Shown: piece by piece, positions 12,566 through 30,894 of the stretch
How positions within the stretch are numbered: the stretch's first letter is position 1
How the letters are laid out: each line of letters opens with the position of its first letter
Assembly (NCBI RefSeq): GCF_000017845.1
Contig: NC_010546.1
Coordinates: 3,030,001-3,062,000 of the forward strand
From: Crocosphaera subtropica ATCC 51142
GTDB lineage: Bacteria > Cyanobacteriota > Cyanobacteriia > Cyanobacteriales > Microcystaceae
DNA length: 32,000 bases
Direction of reading: 5' to 3'
Translations under genes and position numbers: made by a program
The notes under the pieces: model-generated
What the model was told of the DNA's origin: nothing
The model's input: the letters and a program-made list of their open reading frames with translations, nothing else
The model's database searches: none

Positions 12566-14536
12566 TCAATTTTGGGGTAAAAGTAACTTGACAGAGGAGT
12601 TTGACCACTTTTCAACAAACAATTGTTCGTTTACTGTCATCTCTTCAATTGGCTCATCTTTACTTGACCTGATAGCAATCAAAGCACAATAATTAAACTG
12701 ATTATAAGGAGATTGATTAGTTAATTTTGCCGAGTAATTTTCAGGGCTAACAATATGAGAAAATTGATAATTTTTTTGAGGATTAAGCTCTGAAATTAAA
12801 ACCCATAATGGATATTCCCATATTTGCCCAGTGTACTGTGTATTCCATCCTAACGAGAGTCCAATATTTGTACATTCTTGTTGGTTTATTAGTTTTGCTA
12901 CCTCATTATAAGATGGTTGAATGTGTTTCCTTCTGAGAAAATAAATATCATTTCTAGGCATCGTTAAAACACTATTTTCTCCTACAAGGGGATGAGAATT
13001 ATTATTAAATAACCAGGGAAGACAACTAATAATTAGAATAAATGTTAATATTTTCAACGGAATCGGTTTAAGGATTTCAGAATAACATAAACCAACAAAA
13101 GGAGAAAAGAGAACAAAAAACGATAAATGATGACGAACAGAAAAAGGTTGAACTTTTAAAAGAAGACTAAATAGTAGAAAAGACCCAATTAAGCTCATTA
13201 AATACTTCAAAGAGAGCCAATTATTTCTTAAGTTTTTATTAAAAATAAAAATAAAAATAGCTAATAAGATCAACGCAAGATGAAGCGGATTCACAGCGAC
13301 ATCCTCATTAAAAGAAACCCCAGGCACTCTAAAAGTCCATCCTGGCGTAGTTATTCTAGGATCACTAGGATCAACATTAAGGATATGTTCATGAATTAAA
13401 TAAACCAGCTTTTCAACCTTACCGGTTATAGGGGTAATAAACTTTTCTAAATGTAAATAGCGAATAATATCACCATGAAAACTTAAATGTCTAATAGCAG
13501 TTGAAACTAATGTTGGTAAACTATAAATATCATTTTGATTTTCTTCTCGATACTCGGCCGCAGAAATAGGAGAACCAAATACTTCTAAATTTCTTGAATA
13601 ATGAGCTATATTAAATAGTAAACCAATCAATAAAACCACAAATAAATATTTCCAAGCTTTCCATTTTTTTTGCTTCCATAACCAAAGCGTTAACCAAACC
13701 AAAAAAGGAAAACTCAAAAAGTAAGCCGAACTTTTAGTAAATAAAGCCAGTCCAAAACTAGAACCAATAGCTAAAATAATCGGCCAAGAAATGGCATAAT
13801 CAGAAACTAAAACTAATGTATAATAAGCTAAACAAACAATAAATAAAGCAACAACATAATCATTTTGAGTGCTAGAACCTTGCAAAATTCCCATCGGTAA
13901 AGTAGCACAAAATGCCGAGGCTAATAATTGTCCCTCTTTACTCGCTCCCAATTGTTTAGCAATCAAAGAAACAGCAATAATACTACTGACCATAGCAAAC
14001 CACTGTACCAAATTAGCAAAGCGATCGCCTCCACTGAGAATTTGTAGGTGCATAATGCCAATTTCTGCTAAAGGAGGATGAACTAATTGAGCAGAATAAT
14101 AGGTGGGATAATGGGCTAAATTTTGATTTTGTATCCAGTGCATCACCCGCGTCATATGGTAAGTCATAGAATCCCAATTATTGGGTGGAGCAATGACAGC
14201 GACGAAACCCACTAACATAGTAATCACACCAATTCCTATCAAAATCAGTCCAGAGAGTCGGGTTATCTTTGGAAAATGAAATGAGGGAAAAACTCGCTGT
14301 TTTTTCGAGATACTTCGGTAGTAAAATCCTGCTAAGACTAGATTAGTGATTATCCAAAAGGTGATAATCATTGGATAAGTAATTAGGTTAAATAAGCTTA
14401 AGAATTCGCTAGAAAGAGCTACTAAACTGCCTAAAATAATAACCGCAGATAAATAAGAAAACCGCCAATCTCGTTCAGGTTGATGAAAGATTAAAAAAAC
14501 GAGTAATAATGTTATTATGGGCAAAATAGCTAACAT
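12566..14536 (-). CDS. Large polytopic membrane protein, GT-C fold glycosyltransferase-like (ArnT/PMT_2, GT39/83-like)
   Basis: 656 aa with more than 12 hydrophobic segments in the N-terminal ~520 aa and a soluble C-terminal ~130 aa. The 'HPPL' loop motif after TM segments resembles that of ArnT/PMT-type enzymes. The gene appears more AT-rich than its neighbours by eye. Confidence 0.5.
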   Translation of the reverse strand: MLAILPIITLLLVFLIFHQPERDWRFSYLSAVIILGSLVALSSEFLSLFNLITYPMIITFWIITNLVLAGFYYRSISKKQRVFPSFHFPKITRLSGLILIGIGVITMLVGFVAVIAPPNNWDSMTYHMTRVMHWIQNQNLAHYPTYYSAQLVHPPLAEIGIMHLQILSGGDRFANLVQWFAMVSSIIAVSLIAKQLGASKEGQLLASAFCATLPMGILQGSSTQNDYVVALFIVCLAYYTLVLVSDYAISWPIILAIGSSFGLALFTKSSAYFLSFPFLVWLTLWLWKQKKWKAWKYLFVVLLIGLLFNIAHYSRNLEVFGSPISAAEYREENQNDIYSLPTLVSTAIRHLSFHGDIIRYLHLEKFITPITGKVEKLVYLIHEHILNVDPSDPRITTPGWTFRVPGVSFNEDVAVNPLHLALILLAIFIFIFNKNLRNNWLSLKYLMSLIGSFLLFSLLLKVQPFSVRHHLSFFVLFSPFVGLCYSEILKPIPLKILTFILIISCLPWLFNNNSHPLVGENSVLTMPRNDIYFLRRKHIQPSYNEVAKLINQQECTNIGLSLGWNTQYTGQIWEYPLWVLISELNPQKNYQFSHIVSPENYSAKLTNQSPYNQFNYCALIAIRSSKDEPIEEMTVNEQLFVEKWSNSSVKLLLPQN

Positions 14537-19831: not shown

Positions 19832-20050
19832 TCAAGGTTTTGTTGGGTTTCGTTTCTCAACCCAACCTACATCTAAGTCTTGGCGTAAGCCTTTTCCTAT
19901 GTAGAATTTTAAAAGAGCTTCTAAAGACATATCCTGATGATGAGCAATTATTTTTAAAGATTCTAAAGTATCTTTAGGAATAGAAATTGATACCTTTTCT
20001 GAAGGACGAGGTTTAATAGTATAAGTAATTTCTTCGTTAGGTTTGTTCAT
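19832..20050 (-). CDS. brnA: BrnA-type antitoxin (ribbon-helix-helix)
   Basis: 72 aa. KVSISIPKDTLESLKIIAHHQDMSLEALLKFYIGKGLRQ fits a beta-strand plus two-helix RHH. It overlaps the upstream BrnT gene by 14 nt. The last ~12 codons derive from a palindromic element (see 19842-19866). Confidence 0.75.
   Translation of the reverse strand: MNKPNEEITYTIKPRPSEKVSISIPKDTLESLKIIAHHQDMSLEALLKFYIGKGLRQDLDVGWVEKRNPTKP
19842..19866. repeat. Small palindromic element (8-bp perfect stem, 9-nt loop)
   Basis: GTTGGGTT (19842-49), loop tcgtttctc, AACCCAAC (19859-66). Read on the minus strand it encodes ...GWVEKRNPT..., a peptide signature I associate with a dispersed short cyanobacterial repeat. There is no T-tract on either strand, so it is not a classical terminator. 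Confidence 0.6.
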
Positions 20051-20330
20051 ATTGTTTTTTCTCTATACGAGTAGCTAGACGTGCGGAAATAATTCGAGTA
20101 CGTTGGTTTCGTTCAATATAAACAACAAATAAGACACGATAAGCCAAGGAATAACCGAGAATAAATTCTCTTTGTTCACTATTTACTGTCGCATCTCCTG
20201 TTTGATAAAAGGGATCGAAAAATGCTTCGGTGGCTTCTTCAAATGTTACTCCATGTTTCTCAAGATTGATTTGCGCTTTATTGGAATCCCATTCAAATTC
20301 TAAACCCCGTAAGCGATAGACCACATTCAT
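20037..20330 (-). CDS. brnT: BrnT-family toxin (DUF497-type ribonuclease toxin)
   Basis: 97 aa. FEWDSNKAQINLEKHGVTFEEATEAFFDP is the characteristic BrnT N-terminus. The toxin-first gene order with an overlapping antitoxin gene matches brnTA. Confidence 0.8.
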   Translation of the reverse strand: MNVVYRLRGLEFEWDSNKAQINLEKHGVTFEEATEAFFDPFYQTGDATVNSEQREFILGYSLAYRVLFVVYIERNQRTRIISARLATRIEKKQYEQT

Positions 20331-20371: not shown

Positions 20372-20992
20372 TTAATATTGTACAGGTAGGGGGTCAAGAC
20401 TACGCCATAAATACCATGTTGCTACAGTGCGATAGGGTTTCCAAGGTTGTGAAAGTTCTTTAATTTGCTCTTTTGTTAAAAGATTTGTATTCCCGTAATG
20501 ACGTTGAATTGCATTAATTAATCCGAGATCAGCCATAGGAAAAATATCCTTTCGATGTAAATGAAAAATTAAAAACATTTGAGCCGTCCATGAACCAATT
20601 CCTTTAATGGACGTTAACTGTTTTGTAATTTCTTGATCACTCATAGTTTCCCAACTTTGAGGGGTTAAAATACCTTCTTCAAAAGCTTGGGCAACATTAC
20701 GAATATAGAGTATTTTTTGACGTGATAAACCACACTGACGTAAGGATAATTCGTCTATTTCTAAATAATTGTTGATACTAATCGAACCTAGTAAATTTTC
20801 TACTTTTCGACTAATAGAATGAGCAGCAGCTACAGAAATTTGTTGCCCAATAATAGCCTTCATTAAAGTTAAAAATGGATTATAATAGTTAAGCATTGTT
20901 TCAGAGGGATAGGAAGCTATTAACTCAGCTAGAATAGGGTCTTTTAGGGTTAAATATTCTTTAGCTTCGTGCCAATACTTAGGAGAATTCAT
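20372..20992 (-). CDS. DNA-3-methyladenine glycosylase II-like (HhH-GPD superfamily, AlkA-type core)
   Basis: 206 aa with the helix-hairpin-helix IKGIGSWTAQMFLIF and a downstream FPMADLGL with the catalytic-Asp context. It lacks the AlkA N-terminal domain. Confidence 0.75.
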   Translation of the reverse strand: MNSPKYWHEAKEYLTLKDPILAELIASYPSETMLNYYNPFLTLMKAIIGQQISVAAAHSISRKVENLLGSISINNYLEIDELSLRQCGLSRQKILYIRNVAQAFEEGILTPQSWETMSDQEITKQLTSIKGIGSWTAQMFLIFHLHRKDIFPMADLGLINAIQRHYGNTNLLTKEQIKELSQPWKPYRTVATWYLWRSLDPLPVQY

Positions 20993-21085
20993 GGGCTAAA
21001 AATTTTTTTAGATAAATTTTTCTCTTAAATTAATACCAAATCCAGTTATCATAGCTAAAATCTATTTTTTAAAGCAAGGAAATGA

Positions 21086-22663
21086 TTATCTCACTGTAAA
21101 TTTACAACTATCGGCCCCCGTTGCTTTACAACTAATTTCCTCCACAGTTAACCTTGGTAAGTTGGGGATTGAACTTAATAAACCCTGAATCATACCGCGC
21201 AGAAAATAACAGCTAGGGCGATCACTGGTTTTGTAGAGACAAAAGGGATTAGCATGAACGTTCAGTTCATTGTTCTGACTATCAGCAATCATAAAATAAG
21301 AAATCGCAGGAACCACTAATTTATTAAGGGCAGAAACCATATTTTTGGCTGAAACTGCTTTAATTTTACCTTGTTTGACTAACCTTTCCCCTACATATTC
21401 CCCTAATGCCAACATCTGTTGATCATTAATATCTGGGTTGTTGTCCATATCTCGTACAGTAGCAACAAAATCAGGATAAAGGTTAATTAATTCTTGTCCC
21501 ATCTCCAGTAATCTCTTGTCAAGACGTGAGTTCGGTGTTAGGAGTTCGGAGGTCGGAGTTAGAATTTTTTGAACGAGGGAATCAGGGTTTGAGACTTCTT
21601 GTTGGTTGTCAGTTTTCCCTAGATTCTCTTCCGTCGAACTCAGGTTATTCATAAGTAGCGGAGAACTGACTGATTCTAATAGGGAAACCTCTGAAGTTTC
21701 GAGTTGGGTTTGTAATTTTTTGACAGTGCGTCCAATTTCTGCTTCTAGCAGTCCGGTTAATACTTTCCCTGTTTTGATTAATAAATAACTGTCTGGTGTG
21801 CAGTAAGCTAAGATTAAATGCCCTTGTTGACTCTTTAGAGCAATCGTTTCAATCTCTTGCCAGTCCAATTCATCTTGAGTCGTTTGAGCAACATAAAGCA
21901 TGGTTCCTGATAGAATTGAAGTGGTTTCTTCATCCATTCCCATCGGAGTTATTATGGATTTTCCTTCCTGAGAAACTAGAGCAAGGCCTTGAATATCAAG
22001 GGGCTTCATTAATAAATCGTGGAGAATAGTCTCAATAGTTAGAGGATTCATAAGTATTCCCTGATTAACGTCTGAAGATGGGGGTAAAACAGTTAAGGTT
22101 TGGTCAGGATATTGATAATTGAAAGCTGGTTCATTGGCTAGTTTAAAGTTTAAATCCTTAGGAATATATTGACTGATTAATTTACGTCGTTTTAAGGCTT
22201 GTTCTGTTTGTTTTTCAATTTTTTTAGGAATTTCAACCCCTAAACGATCGGACTCATAATCACAATGCTTAGGAATGGTTAGACTCTCTATGTCATAGGT
22301 AGGAGCATTCCGATTAATGTCTAGGATAGGGCCTGATTTTAAACAATTCCAGATGATATCTAACTGAGAAAAAGTCAGTTTTCCAAAGACCAAATAACAG
22401 ATAAAATAAGGAATATTGGTGCGACCGAAATCGTCACTCTCATCATTATACAGCCAACCAAAAAAAGTTTCTTCGAGGGATTTTTGTTGTAGATAAGCGG
22501 CTCGATATCTAGGCTCAGGGGGATTATAACTATTCCAATATCGTTCAACAATGTTTTTAACAAAAAATTGCTGATGTTCCGAAGAAATCAAGGAACTGGA
22601 TAGAATGGTAAAGCCAATGTTAGAAAAACTTGTATAAAAAATTTGTTCGACTGATAAATTCAT
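21086..22663 (-). CDS. Multidomain cytosolic protein: unknown N-terminal domain + Roadblock/LC7 (MglB-like) domain + low-complexity linker + V4R domain
   Basis: 525 aa. The N-terminal domain (aa 1-~115) reads EQIFYTSFSNIGF...YWNSYNPPEPRYRAAYL...FGWLYND..D.FGR.NIPYFICY. The segment aa ~203-318 (IQGLALVSQEGKSIITPMGMDEETTSILSGTMLYVAQ...GHLILAYCTPDSYLLIKTGKVLTGLLEAEIGRTVKKL) has the Roadblock/LC7 pattern. The segment aa ~385-525 ends in CYFLRGMIQGLL...VEEISCKATGADSCKFTV, a V4R-type Cys pattern. Confidence 0.65.
   Translation of the reverse strand: MNLSVEQIFYTSFSNIGFTILSSSLISSEHQQFFVKNIVERYWNSYNPPEPRYRAAYLQQKSLEETFFGWLYNDESDDFGRTNIPYFICYLVFGKLTFSQLDIIWNCLKSGPILDINRNAPTYDIESLTIPKHCDYESDRLGVEIPKKIEKQTEQALKRRKLISQYIPKDLNFKLANEPAFNYQYPDQTLTVLPPSSDVNQGILMNPLTIETILHDLLMKPLDIQGLALVSQEGKSIITPMGMDEETTSILSGTMLYVAQTTQDELDWQEIETIALKSQQGHLILAYCTPDSYLLIKTGKVLTGLLEAEIGRTVKKLQTQLETSEVSLLESVSSPLLMNNLSSTEENLGKTDNQQEVSNPDSLVQKILTPTSELLTPNSRLDKRLLEMGQELINLYPDFVATVRDMDNNPDINDQQMLALGEYVGERLVKQGKIKAVSAKNMVSALNKLVVPAISYFMIADSQNNELNVHANPFCLYKTSDRPSCYFLRGMIQGLLSSIPNLPRLTVEEISCKATGADSCKFTVR
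21528..21562. repeat. Heptamer tandem array (GRGTTMG)5 embedded in frame within a CDS
   Basis: The array reads gagttcg gtgttag gagttcg gaggtcg gagttag. On the coding (minus) strand it yields the 7-aa periodic peptide LTPTSEL/LTPNSRL (aa 368-381). It is the same repeat family as 18455-18503 and 28491-28518. Confidence 0.85.
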
Positions 22664-22903
22664 AAAAAATCGTCAACTGTTGAAAATAATCTAAAGGGGT
22701 TTTTCAGCTTATAACACTAGATAAGCGTTGTTAAGTCGATACTTATCATTGATAATTTTTAAGCAGAGACAAAGAATATTATTTTACTATGATAGTATGT
22801 TGATTATGGGAAAAGATCAGTCATTAGGCGATCGCTCTAGATACCTAATGATATTGTTTCCCTTGAGTTAAACTTCGTCACATTGGTTCCTTAACGATTA
22901 GTT

Positions 22904-22969
22904 TTAGCATTATTGAAGCTTTATCCCAGCGTTAAAGCCATTAATTTTATATTTTTATTAGCATTATTG
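22904..22969. promoter_or_regulatory. Pair of perfect 12-bp direct repeats in a 543-bp divergent intergenic region
   Basis: TTAGCATTATTG occurs at 22904-22915 and 22958-22969, a 54-nt centre-to-centre spacing (about 5 helical turns). Both lie between the divergent 21086-22663 and 23207-24625 genes. There is also an 8-bp inverted repeat TCATTAGG/CCTAATGA (22821-28 / 22844-51) around a HIP1 site. Confidence 0.35.
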
Positions 22970-23206
22970 TTCCCTATTTCCTAACTTAATAACATCTAGA
23001 AAAATGAGGTGAATTGGTAAGTATTCAGCGATCAGCCATCACTTTAAAGCTAACGTAAATTAATCTTGAGAAATTTGAGAGAATTGAAAGTGCAGGAAAA
23101 AGCCGATTAGCTTACTTTATGTGTTTATCATCAAAATTGACTGAGATTAAACGAATGCTGACGTTAGTTATAAGCTTATTGCTATTTTTATCTTTACTTA
23201 ATCAAT

Positions 23207-24625
23207 ATGTCCCAAAGAAAATTTATCAAAATTTTGATTCTCTTCTTGTGTGGATTAATCCTATTTAGTGCCATAGGATTAGTTATATTATGGCTTCAAA
23301 ATACCCAGAGAAATAACGATTTTCAAACTAACACTAACTCAATTTTTCCTAGGGTTGCAAACATTGAAATCAGTCAAGGTCAAAAGGTTTTAATCAGAGA
23401 AGAAAGTGCAGAAACTAAACTAGCTGCAGCCCAAGATATGGCAGCAGAGAACTATCAAATGGCTATGGATAAATTAACCCAATCTCTACAAACCTATCCC
23501 AATGATCCAGAAGCTTTAATTTATCTCAATAATGCACAAATTGGTAATAATAAATCCTATAGCATAGCTGTGGCTGCTCCTATTGCCACTAACACCAACG
23601 GAGCAAAAGAAATTCTTCGGGGAGTGGCTCAAGCACAACAAGAAATTAATCAAGCAGGAGGGATCAAAGGTATCCCTTTAAAAGTTGTGATTGCCAATGA
23701 TCATAATAGTCCTGAAATCGCCAAAAAACTAGCTCAGGAACTGGCTAATGATGCCGATATTTTAGGGGTTATTGGCCATTGGAGTAGTGATGTTACTTTA
23801 GCCTCAGCCGAAATTTATCAATCAGAACAATTAGTGGTTATTTCTCCGGTGAGTACCTCAGTAGAATTATCATCTTTTGGTGATTATATCTTTAGAACTG
23901 TTCCGAGCGATCGCTTTGCCGGTAGTGCGCTTTCTCGTTATATGGTGAATCAATTAGGCAGAAAAAAAGCAGCAATTTTTTTCAATTCACAAAGTAATTA
24001 TAGTCAATCTTTGAAAGATGAATTTACCAAAAGTTTATTTAGCGATGGTGGGGAAATTGTTGGAGAATTTGATTTATCTCAAAAGAATTTTGACCCCAAT
24101 AATGATTGGCAACAAGCCAAAAATCAAGGGGCTGAAGTATTAATGTTAGCCTTAACTACCGATACTATAGAAGAGGCGTTAGCCGTGATTAAAATTAATA
24201 AGAAAGAATTATTTTTATTAGGGGGTGATGATGGCTATAATACAGAACTTTTACAACGAGGTGCAGGGAATGCTGTGGGCATGGTTTTAGCCATTCCTTG
24301 GCATATTTCAGCCCATAATAATGACCCTTTTGTTGGGGTTGCCAAAAGACTCTGGGGAGGGGAAATTAGCTGGCGTACTGCCCTAGCTTATGATGCTACC
24401 CTAGCCTTGATTAATGGGTTAGGGGAAACCCCAAACCCCACCCGTCAAAGTTTGCAAGCAACTTTATCCAAACCCAATTTTTCCTTTCAAGGAGCCTCCG
24501 GTTCTGTCAATTTTTTGCCTTCAGGCGATCGTAATCAAGCGGTTCAATTAGTAAGGGTTAAAGCAAATAATCTGGCTGAATTTGGTTATGAATTCCATAT
24601 TTTTCCCTCTTTAAACAGCAATTAA
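23207..24625 (+). CDS. Membrane-anchored type-I periplasmic binding protein (Leu/Ile/Val-binding-protein-like) with an N-terminal TPR-like helix pair
   Basis: 472 aa with an N-terminal TM (ILILFLCGLILFSAIGLVILWL) and a TPR-like segment AAENYQMAMDKLTQSLQTYPNDPEALIYLNNAQI. This is followed by a LivK/Peripla_BP_6-like core (IAVAAPI...GAKEILRGVAQAQQEINQAGGIKGIPLKVVIANDHNSPE...VIGHWSSDVT...ISPVSTS). Confidence 0.75.
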   Translation: MSQRKFIKILILFLCGLILFSAIGLVILWLQNTQRNNDFQTNTNSIFPRVANIEISQGQKVLIREESAETKLAAAQDMAAENYQMAMDKLTQSLQTYPNDPEALIYLNNAQIGNNKSYSIAVAAPIATNTNGAKEILRGVAQAQQEINQAGGIKGIPLKVVIANDHNSPEIAKKLAQELANDADILGVIGHWSSDVTLASAEIYQSEQLVVISPVSTSVELSSFGDYIFRTVPSDRFAGSALSRYMVNQLGRKKAAIFFNSQSNYSQSLKDEFTKSLFSDGGEIVGEFDLSQKNFDPNNDWQQAKNQGAEVLMLALTTDTIEEALAVIKINKKELFLLGGDDGYNTELLQRGAGNAVGMVLAIPWHISAHNNDPFVGVAKRLWGGEISWRTALAYDATLALINGLGETPNPTRQSLQATLSKPNFSFQGASGSVNFLPSGDRNQAVQLVRVKANNLAEFGYEFHIFPSLNSN

Positions 24626-24793
24626 AATATTGTTATCTAAATAGGATGTCAAAAAAAGAGTTTAATGCTAGAATCATTAGAATTTAAAAAATATCTCAAT
24701 TAAGGTTCTACTTAAGTTACGAGCTTAACCATCTCTATAAATCTGGCAAAAAGGTGGGATTTACTCTATTTCATTTTGAATCTTTTGAATATA

Positions 24794-27049
24794 ATGTCTT
24801 CTAAACCAACATTATCTAGTATTTTAAACTCTAGTCCTCGTTCTTATTCTTCTCCTGCTGACAATTCATCTTGTCCTTATGTGGGTCTAAAATCCTTTGA
24901 AAATAGTGATCGTCATTATTTCTTTGGTCGAGAGACGTTAAGTCAACAACTCTTCAATAATCTTCAAGCGCATAATTTTTTAGCCCTTGTTGGGCCTTTG
25001 GGAGTTGGCAAATCATCGTTAGTACAAGCGGGCGTATTACCCTATTTCTCTTCTTCTCAGGAATGGGAGATTAAAGTCATAAAACCTAGGGAACACCCTC
25101 TAAAAAGTCTGGCCATGACTTTTCTGGATAGTCATTTGCCGACCTTACAAAAAGCTCAACAAATGGCAGATTTTCAACTTTGTTTAGAACAAGGTGCTGA
25201 GGGGTTTTCTCATTTACTACAGAGACTTTCTCGTCCTAAGTTACTCCTCGTTATTGATAATTTTGAAGAAATTTTTACTCTTAGTCAAAATGCTCAAGAA
25301 AGGTGGCAATTTTTAACTGCTTTACTCACTGCGTTAGATCAACATCCTCATCAATTGAAGATTATTACTATAATTAATGAGGAATTTATCAGTTATTGTC
25401 TTGAACAAAAACCCAAAAAACTAGGACAAAAAATTAAAGAAAATTGTATCCTTATTTCTCCTTTAAACGATCAAGAACGCTATGATGCTATCGTTTTACC
25501 AGCGCAACAAGCCAATTTAGAATTAGAATCTCAATTAGTTGAACAGTTACTGCAAGATACTCATCATTTAAAAGGAGGTCTTGCTTTACTTCAATATACC
25601 CTTTGGCAAGTTTGTCGCCTACGCAAAAATGTTAGATTAACTTTAGCTAGTTATGTACAGTTAGGAGAAGTTAAACACGTTTTAGATAAACAAGGGACTG
25701 AAACTTTTTATCAATTAAATAGAAGACAGCGAAACACAGCTAAAAAACTATTGTTAAGTCTGATTCATACCCGTGAAGGCATAGGGCATATTAGTAATTT
25801 AGTTCCACAAAGAAAATTAGAAAATTTACATGATTTCGACTATGTTTTGCAAAAGTTCAAGCAAGTAGGTTTTATTCAAACTGAAGTAGGCAATGACCTA
25901 ACTAACCAAGAAATTTTTTTGCGACTTTCTCACCCTATTGTGATCGAACATTGGAGGTTATTACAAGAGTGGTTAGGGCAACGTCAATCTATTTTTAGAC
26001 AACACCAAAATCTTGAAGCGTTTGCTCAAAGATGGCAAATTTCTAAGAGAGATAAGAAGTATTTATTGACAAGTAAAAAACTAAAAATTGCCCAAGCTTT
26101 AGAAAAACACCAAATAGGGTTTTCACCCTTAACGCAAGAATATATCCAGCAAAGTTCTAAAAAACAATCACGAAATATCCTTGTATATGGAATTTTACCC
26201 CTGACCCTTATTCTTGTTTTGGGTGGGTTGACTTATCGACATTGGCAAATTCAAAAAGCATGGCAAACCCTTGAACTGGCAGAAAATAATCCCTATGATA
26301 TTCGTCGTAAAGATGCTATCGAAAAACTCAATTTTTGGCAGATTAATTTTGAGGAAGTTCCTTTAACTTCTACTTATCTTAAAAATATTAATCTTCCGCA
26401 AGCTAATCTCAGCAATATGGATTTTTCTGGCACTAACTTTGAAAATGCCAATTTAGTGAAATCTGATCTGACCAATAGTAATTTCAAGAATGCTAACTTA
26501 ACGAATAGTCGTCTAATTAAGTCCAATTTATCCCAAAGTAATTTAGAGTTAACTAATTTAACTCAAGGGGATTTAACGGAGGCGAATTTATTTCAAACTA
26601 ACCTGACATTTGCTGCTTTAAATTTTGCTAATTTATCATCGGCTAATTTATCACAGTCTCGTCTCTATTTTGCTAACCTAGAAGATGCAAACCTCTTGAA
26701 AAGTAAGATCAGTCGTAGTAATCTTTCCGGTGCTAATTTAGCTTTTAGTAATCTCATGTTTGCTGATCTTTCTAATTCTAATTTAGCCTCTGCTAATTTA
26801 GTAGAGGCTAATCTTTTATCAACTAATTTAACGAATAGTAATCTTTTAGGTGCTAATTTAATTGAGGTTAAAAACCTTGATCCAAATAACTTAAAGCAAG
26901 CTTGTTTTTGGCAGTATGCTATCTATAAAGGAAAATGGAATACTCAGCAACAAGAATGGGAAATTGATGAAATGGCAAATCGACAATTTATTGAAAAATT
27001 AATCCAGGATAAGGCCTCCGATCCAAGAATCCAACCTACCTGTTCATAA
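24794..27049 (+). CDS. STAND-class P-loop NTPase (nSTAND-like) + single TM helix + C-terminal pentapeptide-repeat domain
   Basis: The track ORF starts at a TTG (24776); the first ATG is at 24794. The N-terminal CPYVGLKSFENSDRHYFFGRE motif directly precedes Walker A GPLGVGKSS (nt 24992-25018). The Walker B-like motif is LLLVIDNFEEIF. A helical/winged-helix-like region follows, then a TM helix ILVYGILPLTLILVLGGLTY (~26176-26238) and about 30 A(N/D)LxX pentapeptide units. Confidence 0.75.
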   Translation: MSSKPTLSSILNSSPRSYSSPADNSSCPYVGLKSFENSDRHYFFGRETLSQQLFNNLQAHNFLALVGPLGVGKSSLVQAGVLPYFSSSQEWEIKVIKPREHPLKSLAMTFLDSHLPTLQKAQQMADFQLCLEQGAEGFSHLLQRLSRPKLLLVIDNFEEIFTLSQNAQERWQFLTALLTALDQHPHQLKIITIINEEFISYCLEQKPKKLGQKIKENCILISPLNDQERYDAIVLPAQQANLELESQLVEQLLQDTHHLKGGLALLQYTLWQVCRLRKNVRLTLASYVQLGEVKHVLDKQGTETFYQLNRRQRNTAKKLLLSLIHTREGIGHISNLVPQRKLENLHDFDYVLQKFKQVGFIQTEVGNDLTNQEIFLRLSHPIVIEHWRLLQEWLGQRQSIFRQHQNLEAFAQRWQISKRDKKYLLTSKKLKIAQALEKHQIGFSPLTQEYIQQSSKKQSRNILVYGILPLTLILVLGGLTYRHWQIQKAWQTLELAENNPYDIRRKDAIEKLNFWQINFEEVPLTSTYLKNINLPQANLSNMDFSGTNFENANLVKSDLTNSNFKNANLTNSRLIKSNLSQSNLELTNLTQGDLTEANLFQTNLTFAALNFANLSSANLSQSRLYFANLEDANLLKSKISRSNLSGANLAFSNLMFADLSNSNLASANLVEANLLSTNLTNSNLLGANLIEVKNLDPNNLKQACFWQYAIYKGKWNTQQQEWEIDEMANRQFIEKLIQDKASDPRIQPTCS
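26378..26870 (+). repeat. Pentapeptide-repeat coding array (15-nt periodicity) inside the STAND NTPase gene
   Basis: The translation reads ...ANLSNMDFSGTNFENANLVKSDLTNSNFKNANLTNSRLIKSNLSQSNLELTNLTQGDLTEANLFQTNL... Recurrent gctaattta / aatcta DNA words appear every 15 nt. The array is in frame, so it is not a CRISPR or a non-coding repeat. Confidence 0.9.
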
Positions 27050-27128: not shown

Positions 27129-28472
27129 ATGAATTTTTTATCATCCTCCTCTGAATATCCTCATTTTAATCTTCTGAGTATTGGCCAGCGTGGTGTAGGA
27201 AAAACCGTATTTTTAGCTGGTAGCTACGCAGAAATGAATCAAGTTTCTGCTGATGAAAATCACCAAAAAATTTGGTTTGAATGTGAGAACGAAGAGGATA
27301 AAAAAACCCTCAATTCTATTTTAGACTATGTGAAACGAACTGGCGAATATCCGCCACCAACGTTAAAAATGACCAATTTTGATTTTATTTTAAAACAAAA
27401 AAATCATAAAAAAGCAAAAACACTATGTGATTTTAGTTGGTCTGATATTCCAGGAGAATATTGTGATTTTAATCACCCTGATTTTCAAGACCTGGTGCTT
27501 TCTTCTCATAGTTGTTGTGTCTTTATTAATGGGGAAAAATTGGTCAAAGATCCTACCTATATCGATGAATTAGAAGGATTAGTTAAACAAGTAATGGCCA
27601 TTGCTATTTTAATCGATCAAAAAGCCATAGATTATAGATTTGCTTTGATTATTACTCAATGCGATCGCTTGGCTTCAGGGTCTATGACACGTTTACAAAT
27701 TGAAGAGAATTTACAATTTTTGACCACCCGTCTAGAAGCAGCAGATGCAAACTATCAACGGTTTTATTCAGGAATTCCTATCGTTTCTAACGATAAAGGA
27801 CATTATTTTCAAGTGAAAGGTTCAGCCGCAGCTTTTCTTTGGATTGTCTCAGAATTACAAAAAGGAACCTCGTTATCCCGTCATAATAACTCCTTAGAAG
27901 GGTCGTTAAAAGTTGATATTTCTGCGTTACAATATTGGCTATCTACTTCGCCAAAAATCCTCTGGCCAGTAGTGGGAATTGTGGGTGGTTTATTTGGCTT
28001 AATGGCGGTGGGAATATTGGTACTCAATCAATTGTCACAACCAAACAATGATAATCGAGTAGCCCAACAATTGACTCAACAACTAGAACAAACCATACGC
28101 AACGATCCCAATGACACCGAAAGCAAATTAACGTTAGTGAATCAGTATCTTAATCAAGAAAAAGTCGACCAAGCCATTGATCTTCTTAAGACAATTGTTG
28201 AGCAGGAACCTGATAATTTAGAACGGAAACTTCAGTTAGCTAATTTGTATGAAATCACAGGAAATATACAGCAAGCAGAATCCGTCTACGATAGAATTTT
28301 AGCAGAAAATTCTAGTTATTTTAATGCCCTATTTGGTAAAGCTTTAATCCGTCATAAACAAGGCGATCGCACCACAGCTAAAACCTTATTACAAGAAGCT
28401 GAAAAAAATGCACCTTCAGACGATTTAAGAAGCAAAACGAAGGCAGCTTTAAAACAACTGAATCTAGAATAA
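27129..28472 (+). CDS. Ras-like (TRAFAC-type) GTPase domain + single TM helix + C-terminal TPR repeats
   Basis: 447 aa. The motifs are G1 GQRGVGKT (aa 19-26, nt 27183-27206), a switch-I Thr candidate (PPPTLKMT), G3 DIPGE (aa 106-110) and a G4-like TQCD (aa 176-179). A TM helix ILWPVVGIVGGLFGLMAVGILVL (~27958-28026) follows, then 3-4 TPR-like repeats (aa ~310-447). Confidence 0.65.
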   Translation: MNFLSSSSEYPHFNLLSIGQRGVGKTVFLAGSYAEMNQVSADENHQKIWFECENEEDKKTLNSILDYVKRTGEYPPPTLKMTNFDFILKQKNHKKAKTLCDFSWSDIPGEYCDFNHPDFQDLVLSSHSCCVFINGEKLVKDPTYIDELEGLVKQVMAIAILIDQKAIDYRFALIITQCDRLASGSMTRLQIEENLQFLTTRLEAADANYQRFYSGIPIVSNDKGHYFQVKGSAAAFLWIVSELQKGTSLSRHNNSLEGSLKVDISALQYWLSTSPKILWPVVGIVGGLFGLMAVGILVLNQLSQPNNDNRVAQQLTQQLEQTIRNDPNDTESKLTLVNQYLNQEKVDQAIDLLKTIVEQEPDNLERKLQLANLYEITGNIQQAESVYDRILAENSSYFNALFGKALIRHKQGDRTTAKTLLQEAEKNAPSDDLRSKTKAALKQLNLE

Positions 28473-28673: not shown

Positions 28674-29027
28674 ATGTTTTTAGATGAAGTTAGTTTTCTT
28701 GATATTTTCCTTGAAGGATTAAAAGTCCTGGGAATGATTTTTTTACTGCTAACCTTAGTGGATGCAGCCGAGAAATATCCCTCCTTAGCAGGTAGTCGAT
28801 GGAATCTTATTATTCTTGGGTTTGTCTTGATGTTAGTTGGCTTTGCTTTTGATTGGTCTGATGAGTTTATTAATTATGAAGCTTCTTCTTTATTAAATAT
28901 TATTGAGGTTGTAATTGAAGAAGTGGGATTAATTGGTGGACTTTTTTTAGTCACATTTGGATTTAAAAGTTGGTTTAGGTTTATGAGTCGTTTCTTAGGA
29001 ATCTCATCGGCTAATCGTGACAGGTAG
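28674..29027 (+). CDS. Small integral membrane protein, hypothetical
   Basis: 117 aa with 3-4 hydrophobic helices (VLGMIFLLLTLV, LIILGFVLMLVGFAF, VGLIGGLFLVTFGF). No recognisable motif. Confidence 0.45.
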   Translation: MFLDEVSFLDIFLEGLKVLGMIFLLLTLVDAAEKYPSLAGSRWNLIILGFVLMLVGFAFDWSDEFINYEASSLLNIIEVVIEEVGLIGGLFLVTFGFKSWFRFMSRFLGISSANRDR

Positions 29028-29196: not shown

Positions 29197-30894
29197 ATGA
29201 CCCTTTCTAAAAAACTATCAAATCTGATTGCCTCATCGATTATTCTTGGTTCATTTTTCATGTTTTCCCAATCTGCACAGGGGATGAAACTCTCTTTGAA
29301 TCTTTTGGGGACCCATGAAACCGGCATTTTTGATGAAGGTTCAGCAGAAATTCCAGCCTACGATCCCCTTAGTGGTAGAGTGTTTGTCGTCAATGGATTT
29401 GCCAATGAACTAACGGTTTTGGATATTAATAATCCGAGAAATCCTATTGCTTTATCTCCCATTAGTTTAACGGGAGGAGGGGTTAATAGTGTAGCGGTGA
29501 AAAATGGTGTTGTGGCCGTAGCAGAACAAGCAACCATCAAAACCGATCCAGGAATGGTGTCCTTTTATAACACCGATGGACTCTTTTTAAACAGTGTTAT
29601 GGTGGGCGCTTTACCGGATATGTTGGACTTTACTCCAGATGGTAGCAAAATTTTAGTGGCCAACGAAGGAGAACCGAACGATGATTATACAATCGATCCA
29701 GAAGGTTCGGTCAGTATTATTGATATTAGTGGTGGCATTGGTTCTCTGAGTCAATCTAATGTCATTACAGCAGGTTTCCAAGCATTTAATAATAGTCGTC
29801 AGCAATTAATTGATGCAGGGGTTCGTATTTTTGGCCCCGATGCCGACAATCTTACTGATCCTGATGCTATTGCTACTGTAGCGCGAGACTTAGAACCCGA
29901 ATACATTGCCATTTCAGAGGACTCAACCACTGCTTGGGTAGCGTTACAAGAAAACAATGCCTTAGGGGTTTTAGACATCAACAGTGGAACCTTTACCAAT
30001 ATTATTCCCCTTGGGTTTAAGGATTATTCTTTAGACGGTAATTCCTTGGATGCCAGTAACGAAGATGGAACCATTAATCTTCAAACCTATGATAATCTTT
30101 TCGGGATGTATCAACCCGATGCGATCGCTACTTACACCGTCAATGGTCAAACCTATATTGTGACGGCCAATGAAGGAGACTCAAGGGATTACGATGGATT
30201 TAGTGAAGAGGCCAGAGTTGCAGATGTTGTCCTCGATCCAGATGCTTTTCCTAATGCAACTGAACTTCAACAAGACTCAGTTTTAGGTCGTTTAAATATT
30301 ACCACCACGTTAGGTGATATAGATAACGACGGAGACTTTGATGAACTCTATTCCTATGGGGCCCGTTCTTTTAGCATTTGGGATGATGAGGGTAACTTAG
30401 TTTTCGATAGTGGTAATCAATTTGAGGTTCTCTTAGCTCAACTTTTACCTGAATATTTTAATGCCAGTAATGATAACAATACCTTTGATAATCGTAGTGA
30501 CGATAAAGGACCCGAACCCGAAGCCGTTACCATCGGGAGGATAGGTGATCAAATCTATGCCTTTATTGGCTTAGAACGGATTGGCGGGATCATGATTTAT
30601 AACATCACCGATCCTGAGAATCCTTCTTTTGTGAACTATACCAATAATAGAAACTTTACTGAGGATGTCATGACTTCTGCGGCCGGAGATTTAGGGCCTG
30701 AAGGGGTCGTCTTTATTAATCCCGAAGACAGTCCCACCAATTCACCTTTATTAGTCGTTGCCAACGAAATTAGTGGAACAACCAGTGTTTATGGGATTTC
30801 TAAAGTCCCTGAACCCAATGCTATTTTAGGATTAATGACAGTAGGTTTGATGGGAAGTTTCCGACTGTTGAAACACCGCAAAAAATCTAATTAG
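29197..30894 (+). CDS. Secreted beta-propeller protein of the 'choice-of-anchor I' type (phosphatase/phytase-like) with a PEP-CTERM anchor
   Basis: 565 aa with a signal peptide (ILGSFFMFSQSAQG). Motifs LEPEYIAISEDSTTAWVALQENNALGVLD, YQPDAIA, ANEGDSRDY and GPEPEAV fit this family. The C-terminus VPEPNAILGLMTVGLMGSFRLLKHRKKSN is a PEP-CTERM sorting signal. Confidence 0.7.
   Translation: MTLSKKLSNLIASSIILGSFFMFSQSAQGMKLSLNLLGTHETGIFDEGSAEIPAYDPLSGRVFVVNGFANELTVLDINNPRNPIALSPISLTGGGVNSVAVKNGVVAVAEQATIKTDPGMVSFYNTDGLFLNSVMVGALPDMLDFTPDGSKILVANEGEPNDDYTIDPEGSVSIIDISGGIGSLSQSNVITAGFQAFNNSRQQLIDAGVRIFGPDADNLTDPDAIATVARDLEPEYIAISEDSTTAWVALQENNALGVLDINSGTFTNIIPLGFKDYSLDGNSLDASNEDGTINLQTYDNLFGMYQPDAIATYTVNGQTYIVTANEGDSRDYDGFSEEARVADVVLDPDAFPNATELQQDSVLGRLNITTTLGDIDNDGDFDELYSYGARSFSIWDDEGNLVFDSGNQFEVLLAQLLPEYFNASNDNNTFDNRSDDKGPEPEAVTIGRIGDQIYAFIGLERIGGIMIYNITDPENPSFVNYTNNRNFTEDVMTSAAGDLGPEGVVFINPEDSPTNSPLLVVANEISGTTSVYGISKVPEPNAILGLMTVGLMGSFRLLKHRKKSN

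Follow-up and report, generated by a model that had tools for sequence, protein, structure and literature searches.

The Roadblock protein MglB acts as both GTPase-activating protein (GAP) and guanine nucleotide exchange factor (GEF) of the small Ras-like GTPase MglA, and longin domains serve as GTPase platforms. In eukaryotes, the Roadblock, V4R/TRAPPC3, and longin folds build the GEF/GAP platforms Ragulator, GATOR1, FLCN-FNIP, and TRAPP, and in Asgard proteins a longin domain is fused with TRAPPC3 (PMC10933270; PMC3747258). V4R domains with Zn-tethering Cys residues bind small hydrophobic ligands in PoxR (summarized in PMC10933270). The DO-GTPase/GAP1 systems, in turn, are described as "nearly completely absent in cyanobacteria" (Kaur, Burroughs, Iyer and Aravind, 2020, eLife; PMC7159879). 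Here, we describe a cyanobacterial protein. It is encoded in a 32,000-nucleotide stretch of Crocosphaera subtropica ATCC 51142 (assembly GCF_000017845.1, contig NC_010546.1, positions 3,030,001 to 3,062,000 of the forward strand; "the window" below) by one 525-codon open reading frame (ORF; Table 1) that joins an uncatalogued N-terminal domain, N-dom, to a Roadblock/LC7 domain and a V4R domain. We propose that this protein is a cytoplasmic regulator or adaptor of a membrane-anchored GTPase of the DO-GTPase2 family encoded nearby, a reading to which we assign a probability of roughly 0.6; any specific role as a GAP, a GEF, or a ligand-responsive switch is much less probable than that.

N-dom and a membrane GTPase are genomic neighbors

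Which GTPase goes with N-dom? A hidden Markov model (HMM) of the GTPase domain encoded in the window, run on all ORFs of the fetched N-dom loci, finds a homolog in 55 loci and within 10 kb of 59 of the 89 N-dom genes. About 42 N-dom genes directly adjoin the GTPase gene on the same strand; at 33 loci the GTPase gene ends less than 400 bp upstream, again on the same strand, and some pairs overlap (by 1 nt in L017 and L019; by 4 nt, in reverse order, in L053, L056, L058, and L061). The frequency of a GTPase gene within 10 kb depends on what follows N-dom: it is 27/30 for proteins with a transmembrane segment (TM) and a WD40 propeller, 7/8 for N-dom-(TM)-PBP_like_2, 6/6 for N-dom-Roadblock-V4R, 7/18 for N-dom-Roadblock, and 10/20 for N-dom-TM. 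The original prediction, made from the letters of this one stretch, had proposed ligand-controlled regulation of a GTPase; the adjacency of N-dom genes and homologs of this GTPase across cyanobacteria makes for a stronger link than it foresaw.

Within the V4R-bearing clade, the linkage survives three rearrangements: (i) the GTPase gene is divergent and 4.5 kb away, with genes for a Peripla_BP_6 (PBP6) protein and an nSTAND1 NTPase in between (the window and L001/L008-L010); (ii) the GTPase gene is in tandem with the N-dom-Roadblock-V4R gene, across a 61-bp gap (L004/L011); or (iii) the order is PBP6, GTPase, N-dom-Roadblock-V4R (L013). In Gloeothece PCC 7424, a GTPase-TPR gene lies 1.6 kb from an N-dom gene and is followed by a PBP_like_2 gene. 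The two domains also vary together: over 58 linked pairs, the distance matrix of N-dom correlates with that of the GTPase domain at a Mantel r of 0.70, a value that 0 of 2000 permutations reach and that was computed without species-tree correction.

Could the partner NTPase be the neighboring nSTAND1-pentapeptide protein instead? Its gene sits between the PBP6 and GTPase genes in the window and in L001/L008-L010, and pentapeptide-repeat proteins recur next to N-dom genes. However, nSTAND1 is absent from L011, L013, L002, and most N-dom loci, whereas the DO-GTPase2-like GTPase is the neighbor that recurs; we hold the nSTAND1 protein to be a very improbable partner.

The protein encoded at 27129 carries GTPase motifs: the P-loop GQRGVGKT, T78, DIPGE, and TQCD. 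Family-wide, G1 (the P-loop), Thr78 (G2), DxPGE (G3, with a Walker B Glu), and T(K/Q)xD (G4) are conserved, with DIPGE invariant. The Pfam model DO-GTPase2 (PF19993) matches 45 of 47 family members, orthologs and paralogs together (best E 7.4e-9), and many database homologs carry a precomputed PF19993 annotation; judged by these profile matches, the GTPase belongs to the DO-GTPase2 family, a family of the paper on NTP-dependent conflict systems to which the original prediction alluded (PMC7159879). The GTPase is a single-pass membrane protein; a TM follows the GTPase domain in 115 of 120 homologs. Searched against PDB sequences, the GTPase profile finds only P-loop-level matches to Rag and Rab proteins (E > 0.3); in the literature beyond Kaur et al. 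(2020), we found DO-GTPases only in two passing mentions.

A constant head on variable bodies

In an architecture survey (170 family members and 89 genomic copies classified locally by HMM and BLAST, plus Pfam scans), N-dom emerges as the constant part, a cytoplasmic head, and the sensor or effector bodies joined to it as the variable one. N-dom followed by a TM and a WD40 propeller is the commonest architecture in filamentous strains. P0168, P0026, and about 19 other clusters join N-dom to a Peptidase_C14 (ortho)caspase, usually with a TM and WD40 repeats behind it, and the catalytic dyad of these caspases, His (SGHG) and Cys (DCC), is intact. Roughly 42 clusters combine N-dom with Roadblock; 13 of them, all of the Crocosphaera type, also have V4R. 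The remaining bodies include TM plus PBP_like_2, TM plus Peripla_BP_6, GAF, pentapeptide repeats, and TM plus a short tail. The 525-aa protein is thus the soluble Roadblock plus V4R variant of a single clade.

Two fusions are of particular use. In P0098, an N-dom-TM-PBP6 protein, the C-terminal 411 aa are 43% identical (E 3e-105) to the PBP6 protein encoded next to the target gene in the window; P0044, an N-dom-TM-PBP_like_2 protein, shares 40% identity across 289 aa with the free-standing PBP_like_2 protein encoded beside the Gloeothece GTPase gene. These are Rosetta-stone fusions that tie the binding proteins to the GTPase/N-dom module. No fusion of N-dom to the GTPase was found.

N-dom is a new domain family

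What is N-dom? An exhaustive HMMER profile search of 1.84 billion representatives yields 182 clusters at E <= 1e-3, 177 of which remain at E <= 1e-10: N-dom is a discrete, sharp-edged family with no detectable outliers. In 149 of the 150 matches listed, its start lies among the first 40 residues. When a single genome of each GTDB species is scanned, 80 loci emerge; wherever a title gives a taxon, it is a cyanobacterium, with a range from Gloeobacterales to Nostocales, and the family appears to be restricted to this phylum. The N-terminal motifs singled out in the original prediction (YTSF..GF, YNPP, FGWLYND, and PYFICY) are real and coincide with the most conserved columns of the family. Two arginines are nearly invariant, R81, which lies within the FGWLYNDxxDDxGR hairpin, and R118; both are candidate catalytic or binding residues.

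The domain is not catalogued under another name in the collections scanned. The N-dom of the target has no match in Pfam, NCBIfam, or PADLOC, with GAP1-N1/N2 and the EADs included; 63 diverse N-dom sequences, compared with Pfam at E <= 10, share no recurrent model; and the N-dom profile finds nothing among PDB sequences at E <= 10. The AlphaFold2 (AF2) model is of high confidence (pLDDT 91.7, pTM 0.88) and has the elements b(3-13) b(17-23) a(28-42) b(53-62) b(65-76) b(82-93) a(98-110) ... a(147-158). This predicted order, b-b-a-b-b-b-a-a, is that of longin domains. In Foldseek searches of the PDB, no structure is found at E <= 1e-3; the best match, 6ulg_N (E 0.013, probability 0.99, TM-score 0.37), is a chain of the FLCN-FNIP2-Rag-Ragulator complex. 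The weak matches include the Rag-GTPase GAP complexes FLCN-FNIP2, GATOR1, and SEAC; TagF and PAS domains are in the same list. Pfam Longin matches 1 of the 63 N-dom sequences (E 0.1). Because Foldseek gives N-dom no significant match, the longin likeness of the model is treated as a lead, not a result.

Roadblock, V4R, and the gene that joins them

The ORF is a genuine gene. Among 5.8 billion proteins searched, 21 are homologs of the 525-aa protein; 11 are essentially full-length, of the Crocosphaera type, 50-65% identical, and identical in layout, and the full-length homologs begin at the same start (MxLxVEQIxYTSF). The original prediction placed three modules in this one chain, and the ORF, Pfam, AF2/Foldseek, and the homologs bear out both the modules and their boundaries.

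The Roadblock domain of the target scores below the Pfam cutoff when scanned alone, yet its homologs and its predicted structure confirm it. Of 17 family members, 14 match Robl_LC7, the best with E 4.1e-6, and a precomputed PF03259 is attached to several homologs. In the AF2 model, helices (207-218, 245-266, 303-322) and strands (224-231, 273-278, 281-289, 292-298) follow the order a-b-b-a-b-b-b-a over aa 207-322, where a one-residue bridge takes the place of the second strand. When this model is compared with the PDB by Foldseek, structures of Roadblock, MglB, LAMTOR, or related dynein light chains take the top 48 places and 49 of the 50 places listed, Asgard Roadblock proteins among them; the best is 9jue_F (E 4.1e-7, TM-score normalized to the target 0.83, 117 columns). 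As modeled, aa 205-323 are confirmed as a structural member of the MglB/LAMTOR fold. Roadblock cannot, however, be the primary coupling domain, because most N-dom partners of the GTPase lack it.

V4R is clearer at the sequence level: Pfam V4R (PF02830) matches aa 466-524 with E 1.4e-11 (44.7 bits versus a gathering cutoff of 31), and C475, C485, C512, and C520 are invariant in 12/12 V4R-bearing homologs. The folded C-terminal region exceeds this core, spanning about aa 378-525 (AF2, pLDDT about 80-90), and its best match among PDB sequences, full-length and weak (E 0.12), is a Thorarchaeota (Asgard) TRAPPC3. Control by a ligand through V4R, as originally suggested, is plausible. Should the protein, then, be seen primarily as a V4R small-molecule sensor or a "4-vinyl reductase"-like protein that works without a GTPase, with Roadblock and N-dom as oligomerization modules only? 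NCBI does name homologs "4-vinyl reductase" or "V4R domain-containing protein", and the V4R core has weak NCBIfam matches to BchJ (E 1e-4) and MsvR (E 8e-6). But these matches are far below their cutoffs (22 bits versus 74 for BchJ, 26 versus 220 for MsvR) and cover about 60 residues; the GTPase gene is linked at 6/6 V4R-bearing loci; and just 13 of the roughly 170 N-dom proteins, all from a single clade of the Crocosphaera type, contain V4R, which marks it as an accessory part rather than the core. A GTPase-independent sensor is, in our estimate, quite improbable. The narrower identity of a 4-vinyl reductase/BchJ enzyme was rejected on a match that is sub-threshold and confined to the V4R core.

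The linkers are of a different nature. The columns of linker 1 are variable in the homolog alignment, and pLDDT falls below 50 at aa 171-204 and, in linker 2, at aa 323-379 (AF2). The heptamer repeat that the original prediction saw in the low-complexity linker 2 exists, though it is small: Tandem Repeats Finder (TRF) reports 33 nt with a period of 14 (two 7-mers), 2.4 copies, 84% matches, and a score of 45. On the coding strand it reads AACTCCG ACCTCCG AACTCCT AACACCG AACTC and encodes LTPTSELLTPNS; it sits in a gap-rich part of the homolog alignment. A promoter and terminator scan of 20900-23300 was uninformative, giving fewer promoter-like sites than shuffled sequence and no terminator, and a literature search returned nothing specific on Roadblock plus V4R in cyanobacteria.

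How would the module work?

From the observed domain content, family distribution, gene linkage, and fusions, we infer that the two proteins would bind each other, and that GAP or GEF activity, ligand sensing, and a biological output may follow from this contact. The constant pair would consist of a single-pass membrane GTPase of the DO-GTPase2 family and a protein that starts with N-dom. N-dom would dock on or regulate the GTPase and might serve it as a longin/Roadblock-like platform, and Arg81 and Arg118 could contact the nucleotide site. In its relatives, the TM plus periplasmic WD40 or solute-binding parts look receptor-like and the caspase part effector-like; in the receptor type, the binding of a ligand in the periplasm would act through the single TM on the contact between N-dom and the GTPase. 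In the target, Roadblock would add a second GTPase-platform or dimerization element, and the four-Cys V4R may bind a small hydrophobic ligand or a metal and so would add small-molecule sensing in the cytoplasm. Periplasmic input in this clade would probably arrive in trans, through the PBP6 binding protein and the TPR tail of the GTPase. The ligand state of V4R, of the periplasmic sensors, or of both could alter the hold of N-dom and Roadblock on the GTPase, and this altered hold would change the GTP/GDP state or the assembly of the GTPase.

Several points weigh against a regulator or adaptor of this GTPase. There is no GTPase gene within 10 kb at 11/18 N-dom-Roadblock loci without V4R and at 10/20 N-dom-TM loci; in the window, the GTPase gene, 4.5 kb off and divergent, is neither adjacent to nor co-oriented with the target gene; and the Mantel correlation ignores the species tree. 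Scanned alone, the target matches Pfam Robl_LC7 (PF03259) at aa 216-297 with E 0.13 (12.5 bits versus a cutoff of 23), and the GTPase matches DO-GTPase2 with E 0.03 (14.3 bits versus 27), again below the cutoff, and DO-GTPase1 with E 0.004. The longin-like assignment combines strand order with non-significant Foldseek matches that include PAS domains, and hhalign detects no kinship of N-dom with the Roadblock domain of its own family (probability <1%); therefore, there is no evidence for an internal duplication.

If the longin lead is nonetheless followed, a bolder version of the regulator takes shape: N-dom would be a bacterial longin-type platform, the pair a transmembrane receptor-to-G-protein system in which periplasmic solute-binding or WD40 sensors are coupled through N-dom to the membrane-anchored GTPase, and the target a single-chain longin plus Roadblock plus TRAPPC3/V4R regulator, so that the three folds of the eukaryotic Ragulator, GATOR, and TRAPP platforms would be assembled in a bacterium. 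We offer this version as tentative and less likely than not.

What is new here is a DO-GTPase2 module of cyanobacteria in which the partner is built on a new domain family; the target is its clade-specific Roadblock plus V4R form. If the proposal is right, a conserved and unstudied signaling module runs through the cyanobacteria from Gloeobacterales to Nostocales, and DO-GTPase systems extend into a phylum thought to be nearly without them. The gain would include a new and well-predicted, hence tractable, domain family; a bacterial example, accessible to testing, in which ligand-binding receptors couple to a G protein; and a bearing on the evolution of longin, Roadblock, and TRAPPC3 platforms for GTPases. 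Orthologous pairs are present in the genetically tractable strains Nostoc sp. PCC 7120 and Gloeothece PCC 7424 (orthologs include the GTPase BAB76459.1 in the former, with a WD40 gene downstream of its own, and the N-dom protein ACK72678.1 in the latter); a literature search with guessed PCC 7120 locus tags found nothing.

Neighboring genes

The PBP6 gene, divergent from the target gene, is also linked in L008-L010 and L013, and its product is a probable sensor partner. The nSTAND1-TM-pentapeptide gene is kept only in the closest Crocosphaera-type loci; pentapeptide-repeat proteins also recur next to N-dom genes in L036, L041, L044, and L054. Downstream of the GTPase gene, the 117-aa ORF occupies the same position in L001 and is conserved in the nearest relatives only; it has no family match at E <= 0.001, with sub-threshold matches confined to CrgA and CbiQ (E 0.016-0.028), and its product is a possible fifth member of the cluster.

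Table 1. Features of the target gene and its neighbors (positions in the window; aa, positions in the respective protein)
Feature	Position	Strand	Details
N-dom + Roadblock + V4R protein (target)	21086..22663	-	complete ATG-started ORF, 525 aa plus stop
N-dom, aa 1-165	22169..22663	-	uncatalogued domain; AF2 model and family profile
Linker 1, aa 166-204	22052..22168	-	poorly conserved, predicted disordered
Roadblock/LC7 (MglB-like), aa 205-323	21695..22051	-	Pfam matches of homologs and Foldseek
Linker 2, aa 324-377	21533..21694	-	low complexity, predicted disordered
V4R/TRAPPC3-like domain, aa 378-525	21089..21532	-	Pfam V4R core aa 466-524 (nt 21092-21268)
Imperfect AACTCCG-like heptamer DNA repeat, end of linker 2	21528..21560	.	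TRF
Membrane-anchored Peripla_BP_6 protein	23207..24625	+	Pfam E 4e-41; TM aa 2-20; divergent from target
nSTAND1 NTPase + TM + pentapeptide repeats	24776..27049	+	nSTAND1 E 1.2e-85; TM aa 465-483
Membrane-anchored GTPase, DO-GTPase2 family by profile matches	27129..28472	+	GTPase domain aa 1-260, TM aa 276-294, C-terminal TPR
117-aa predicted membrane protein, downstream of GTPase gene	28674..29027	+	three hydrophobic segments

Also in the window, at 19832-20330 (-), two small overlapping ORFs encode a 97-aa BrnT ribonuclease toxin (Pfam E 3.3e-26) and, downstream, a 72-aa product with no Pfam match, presumably a BrnA-like antitoxin. A choice-of-anchor I domain protein (29197-30894, +; E 3.5e-145) and a 656-aa ORF (12566-14536, -) with no Pfam match at E <= 1e-4 have no apparent link to the N-dom protein.

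Elsewhere, Nostocales and Leptolyngbya share a conserved gene order, HlyD, C39-peptidase ABC exporter, an ORF of about 100 aa, GTPase, and N-dom-TM-WD40 (L019 5322-11680; also L027, L029, L034, L051, L052, L057, and L062), which hints that the N-dom/GTPase pair is linked to peptide export in those loci. In Brasilonema, a 1421-aa protein (L006 3754-8019) with no Pfam match and an Hsp70/actin-like motif, WYLGIDLGTTGIS, is encoded upstream of two genes, one for a PBP_like_2 protein and one for an N-dom-TM protein.

Comparison with known systems

Is N-dom a GAP1 domain in disguise? The original prediction saw a likeness to the N-termini of GAP1-like proteins, one that finds no counterpart in the Pfam scans of N-dom and full-length sequences: the GAP1 models are absent from the target, 17 full-length members, and 63 N-dom sequences (E <= 10 each), and from the first 25 families, all of the WD40 type, listed for 80 long N-dom relatives (E <= 1e-3). 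Nor do GAP1-M or GAP1-C match the target or its homologs, in which Roadblock and V4R, or TM plus sensors in the relatives, follow N-dom. We do not file the protein as GAP1, because the defining GAP1-N1/N2, M, and C domains are not found by Pfam HMMs; by its context, it behaves like one.

Bona fide DO-GTPase2 genes, followed for their partners in a Calothrix plasmid, Solwaraspora, and an ENA metagenome-assembled genome (MAG), have downstream of them a second unannotated partner family (h1, h2, L091_u2, and L092_u1), hosted by cyanobacteria, an actinobacterium, and a MAG (L088, Calothrix sp. PCC 6303 plasmid NC_019728, 103-5773; L091 8001-11188; L092 8001-10832). Its members h1 and h2 have no Pfam match, GAP1 included. 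The motif order of this family, WAPIVYGRT..VDFRFL ... GRPLYxFVGY, is loosely like QIxYTSF..GFxxL ... GRxxIPYFICY of N-dom; hmmsearch and hhalign give no signal between the two. In Solwaraspora (L091), an HSP70-family gene precedes the DO-GTPase2 gene.

Could the module be an anti-phage or "biological conflict" component of the DO-GTPase/GAP1 type, in which N-dom is a highly diverged GAP1-N, the C-termini are sensors and effectors, and nSTAND1 belongs to the same defense island? The DO-GTPase2-like GTPase with its Walker B Glu (PMC7159879), a partner gene that usually lies downstream, variable C-terminal fusions that include WD40 and, judging by its intact dyad, an apparently active caspase, the nSTAND1 protein within the cluster, and HSP70-type neighbors of bona fide DO-GTPase2 genes, which echo one GAP1-N2 theme, are all what such a system would look like. 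However, no scan lists Pfam GAP1-N1, N2, M, or C among its matches, of which those of the 80 long relatives are the first 25 families; PADLOC matches neither the target nor the nSTAND1 protein nor any of the small ORFs, and it reaches the GTPase with sub-threshold matches only (best E 7e-4); the spread from Gloeobacterales to Nostocales, with long-range synteny within Nostocales, is unlike that of a mobile island; what N-dom is most often fused to is a solute-binding protein or WD40 rather than a toxin; and Kaur et al. report such systems to be nearly absent from this phylum (PMC7159879). A conflict system is, on balance, unlikely.

How, then, does a regulator or adaptor of the GTPase compare with described systems? 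The module shares with DO-GTPase/GAP1 systems (i) a GTPase placed by profile matches in the DO-GTPase2 family, with Glu in Walker B; (ii) a partner gene typically just downstream of the GTPase gene (33 loci, <400 bp); (iii) a partner with a constant N-terminal domain and variable C-terminal modules, caspase included; and (iv) components that are often membrane-bound. Unlike in those systems, N-dom has no match to GAP1-N1/N2 and there is no GAP1-M or GAP1-C domain; no GASH or FNIII component is seen here; the GTPase consists of one domain, to which a C-terminal TM and, in some cases, TPR are added; the modules fused to N-dom are mostly periplasmic sensors or Roadblock; and the N-dom family is apparently exclusive to a phylum reported to be nearly without such systems. 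In comparison to MglA/MglB, the GTPase is not MglA-like and Roadblock is one of three modules, but aa 205-323 match the MglB structures 1j3w, 3t1r, and 6hjm (Foldseek E 2e-5 to 2e-4), and a Roadblock protein is again genomically associated with a GTPase. Set beside V4R sensors (the PoxR/DmpR-type phenol sensors, MJ1460, and BchJ), the target has no sigma-54 AAA+ or HTH output and joins V4R to Roadblock and N-dom, but it has a Pfam V4R match above the cutoff and four conserved Cys. From the eukaryotic and Asgard platforms it differs in its cyanobacterial host, in the family of its GTPase, and in an N-dom whose similarity is non-significant and not accompanied by a sequence relation; like them, it unites a Roadblock fold and a V4R/TRAPPC3-type fold with a domain whose predicted strand order, an unproven part of the likeness, is that of a longin.

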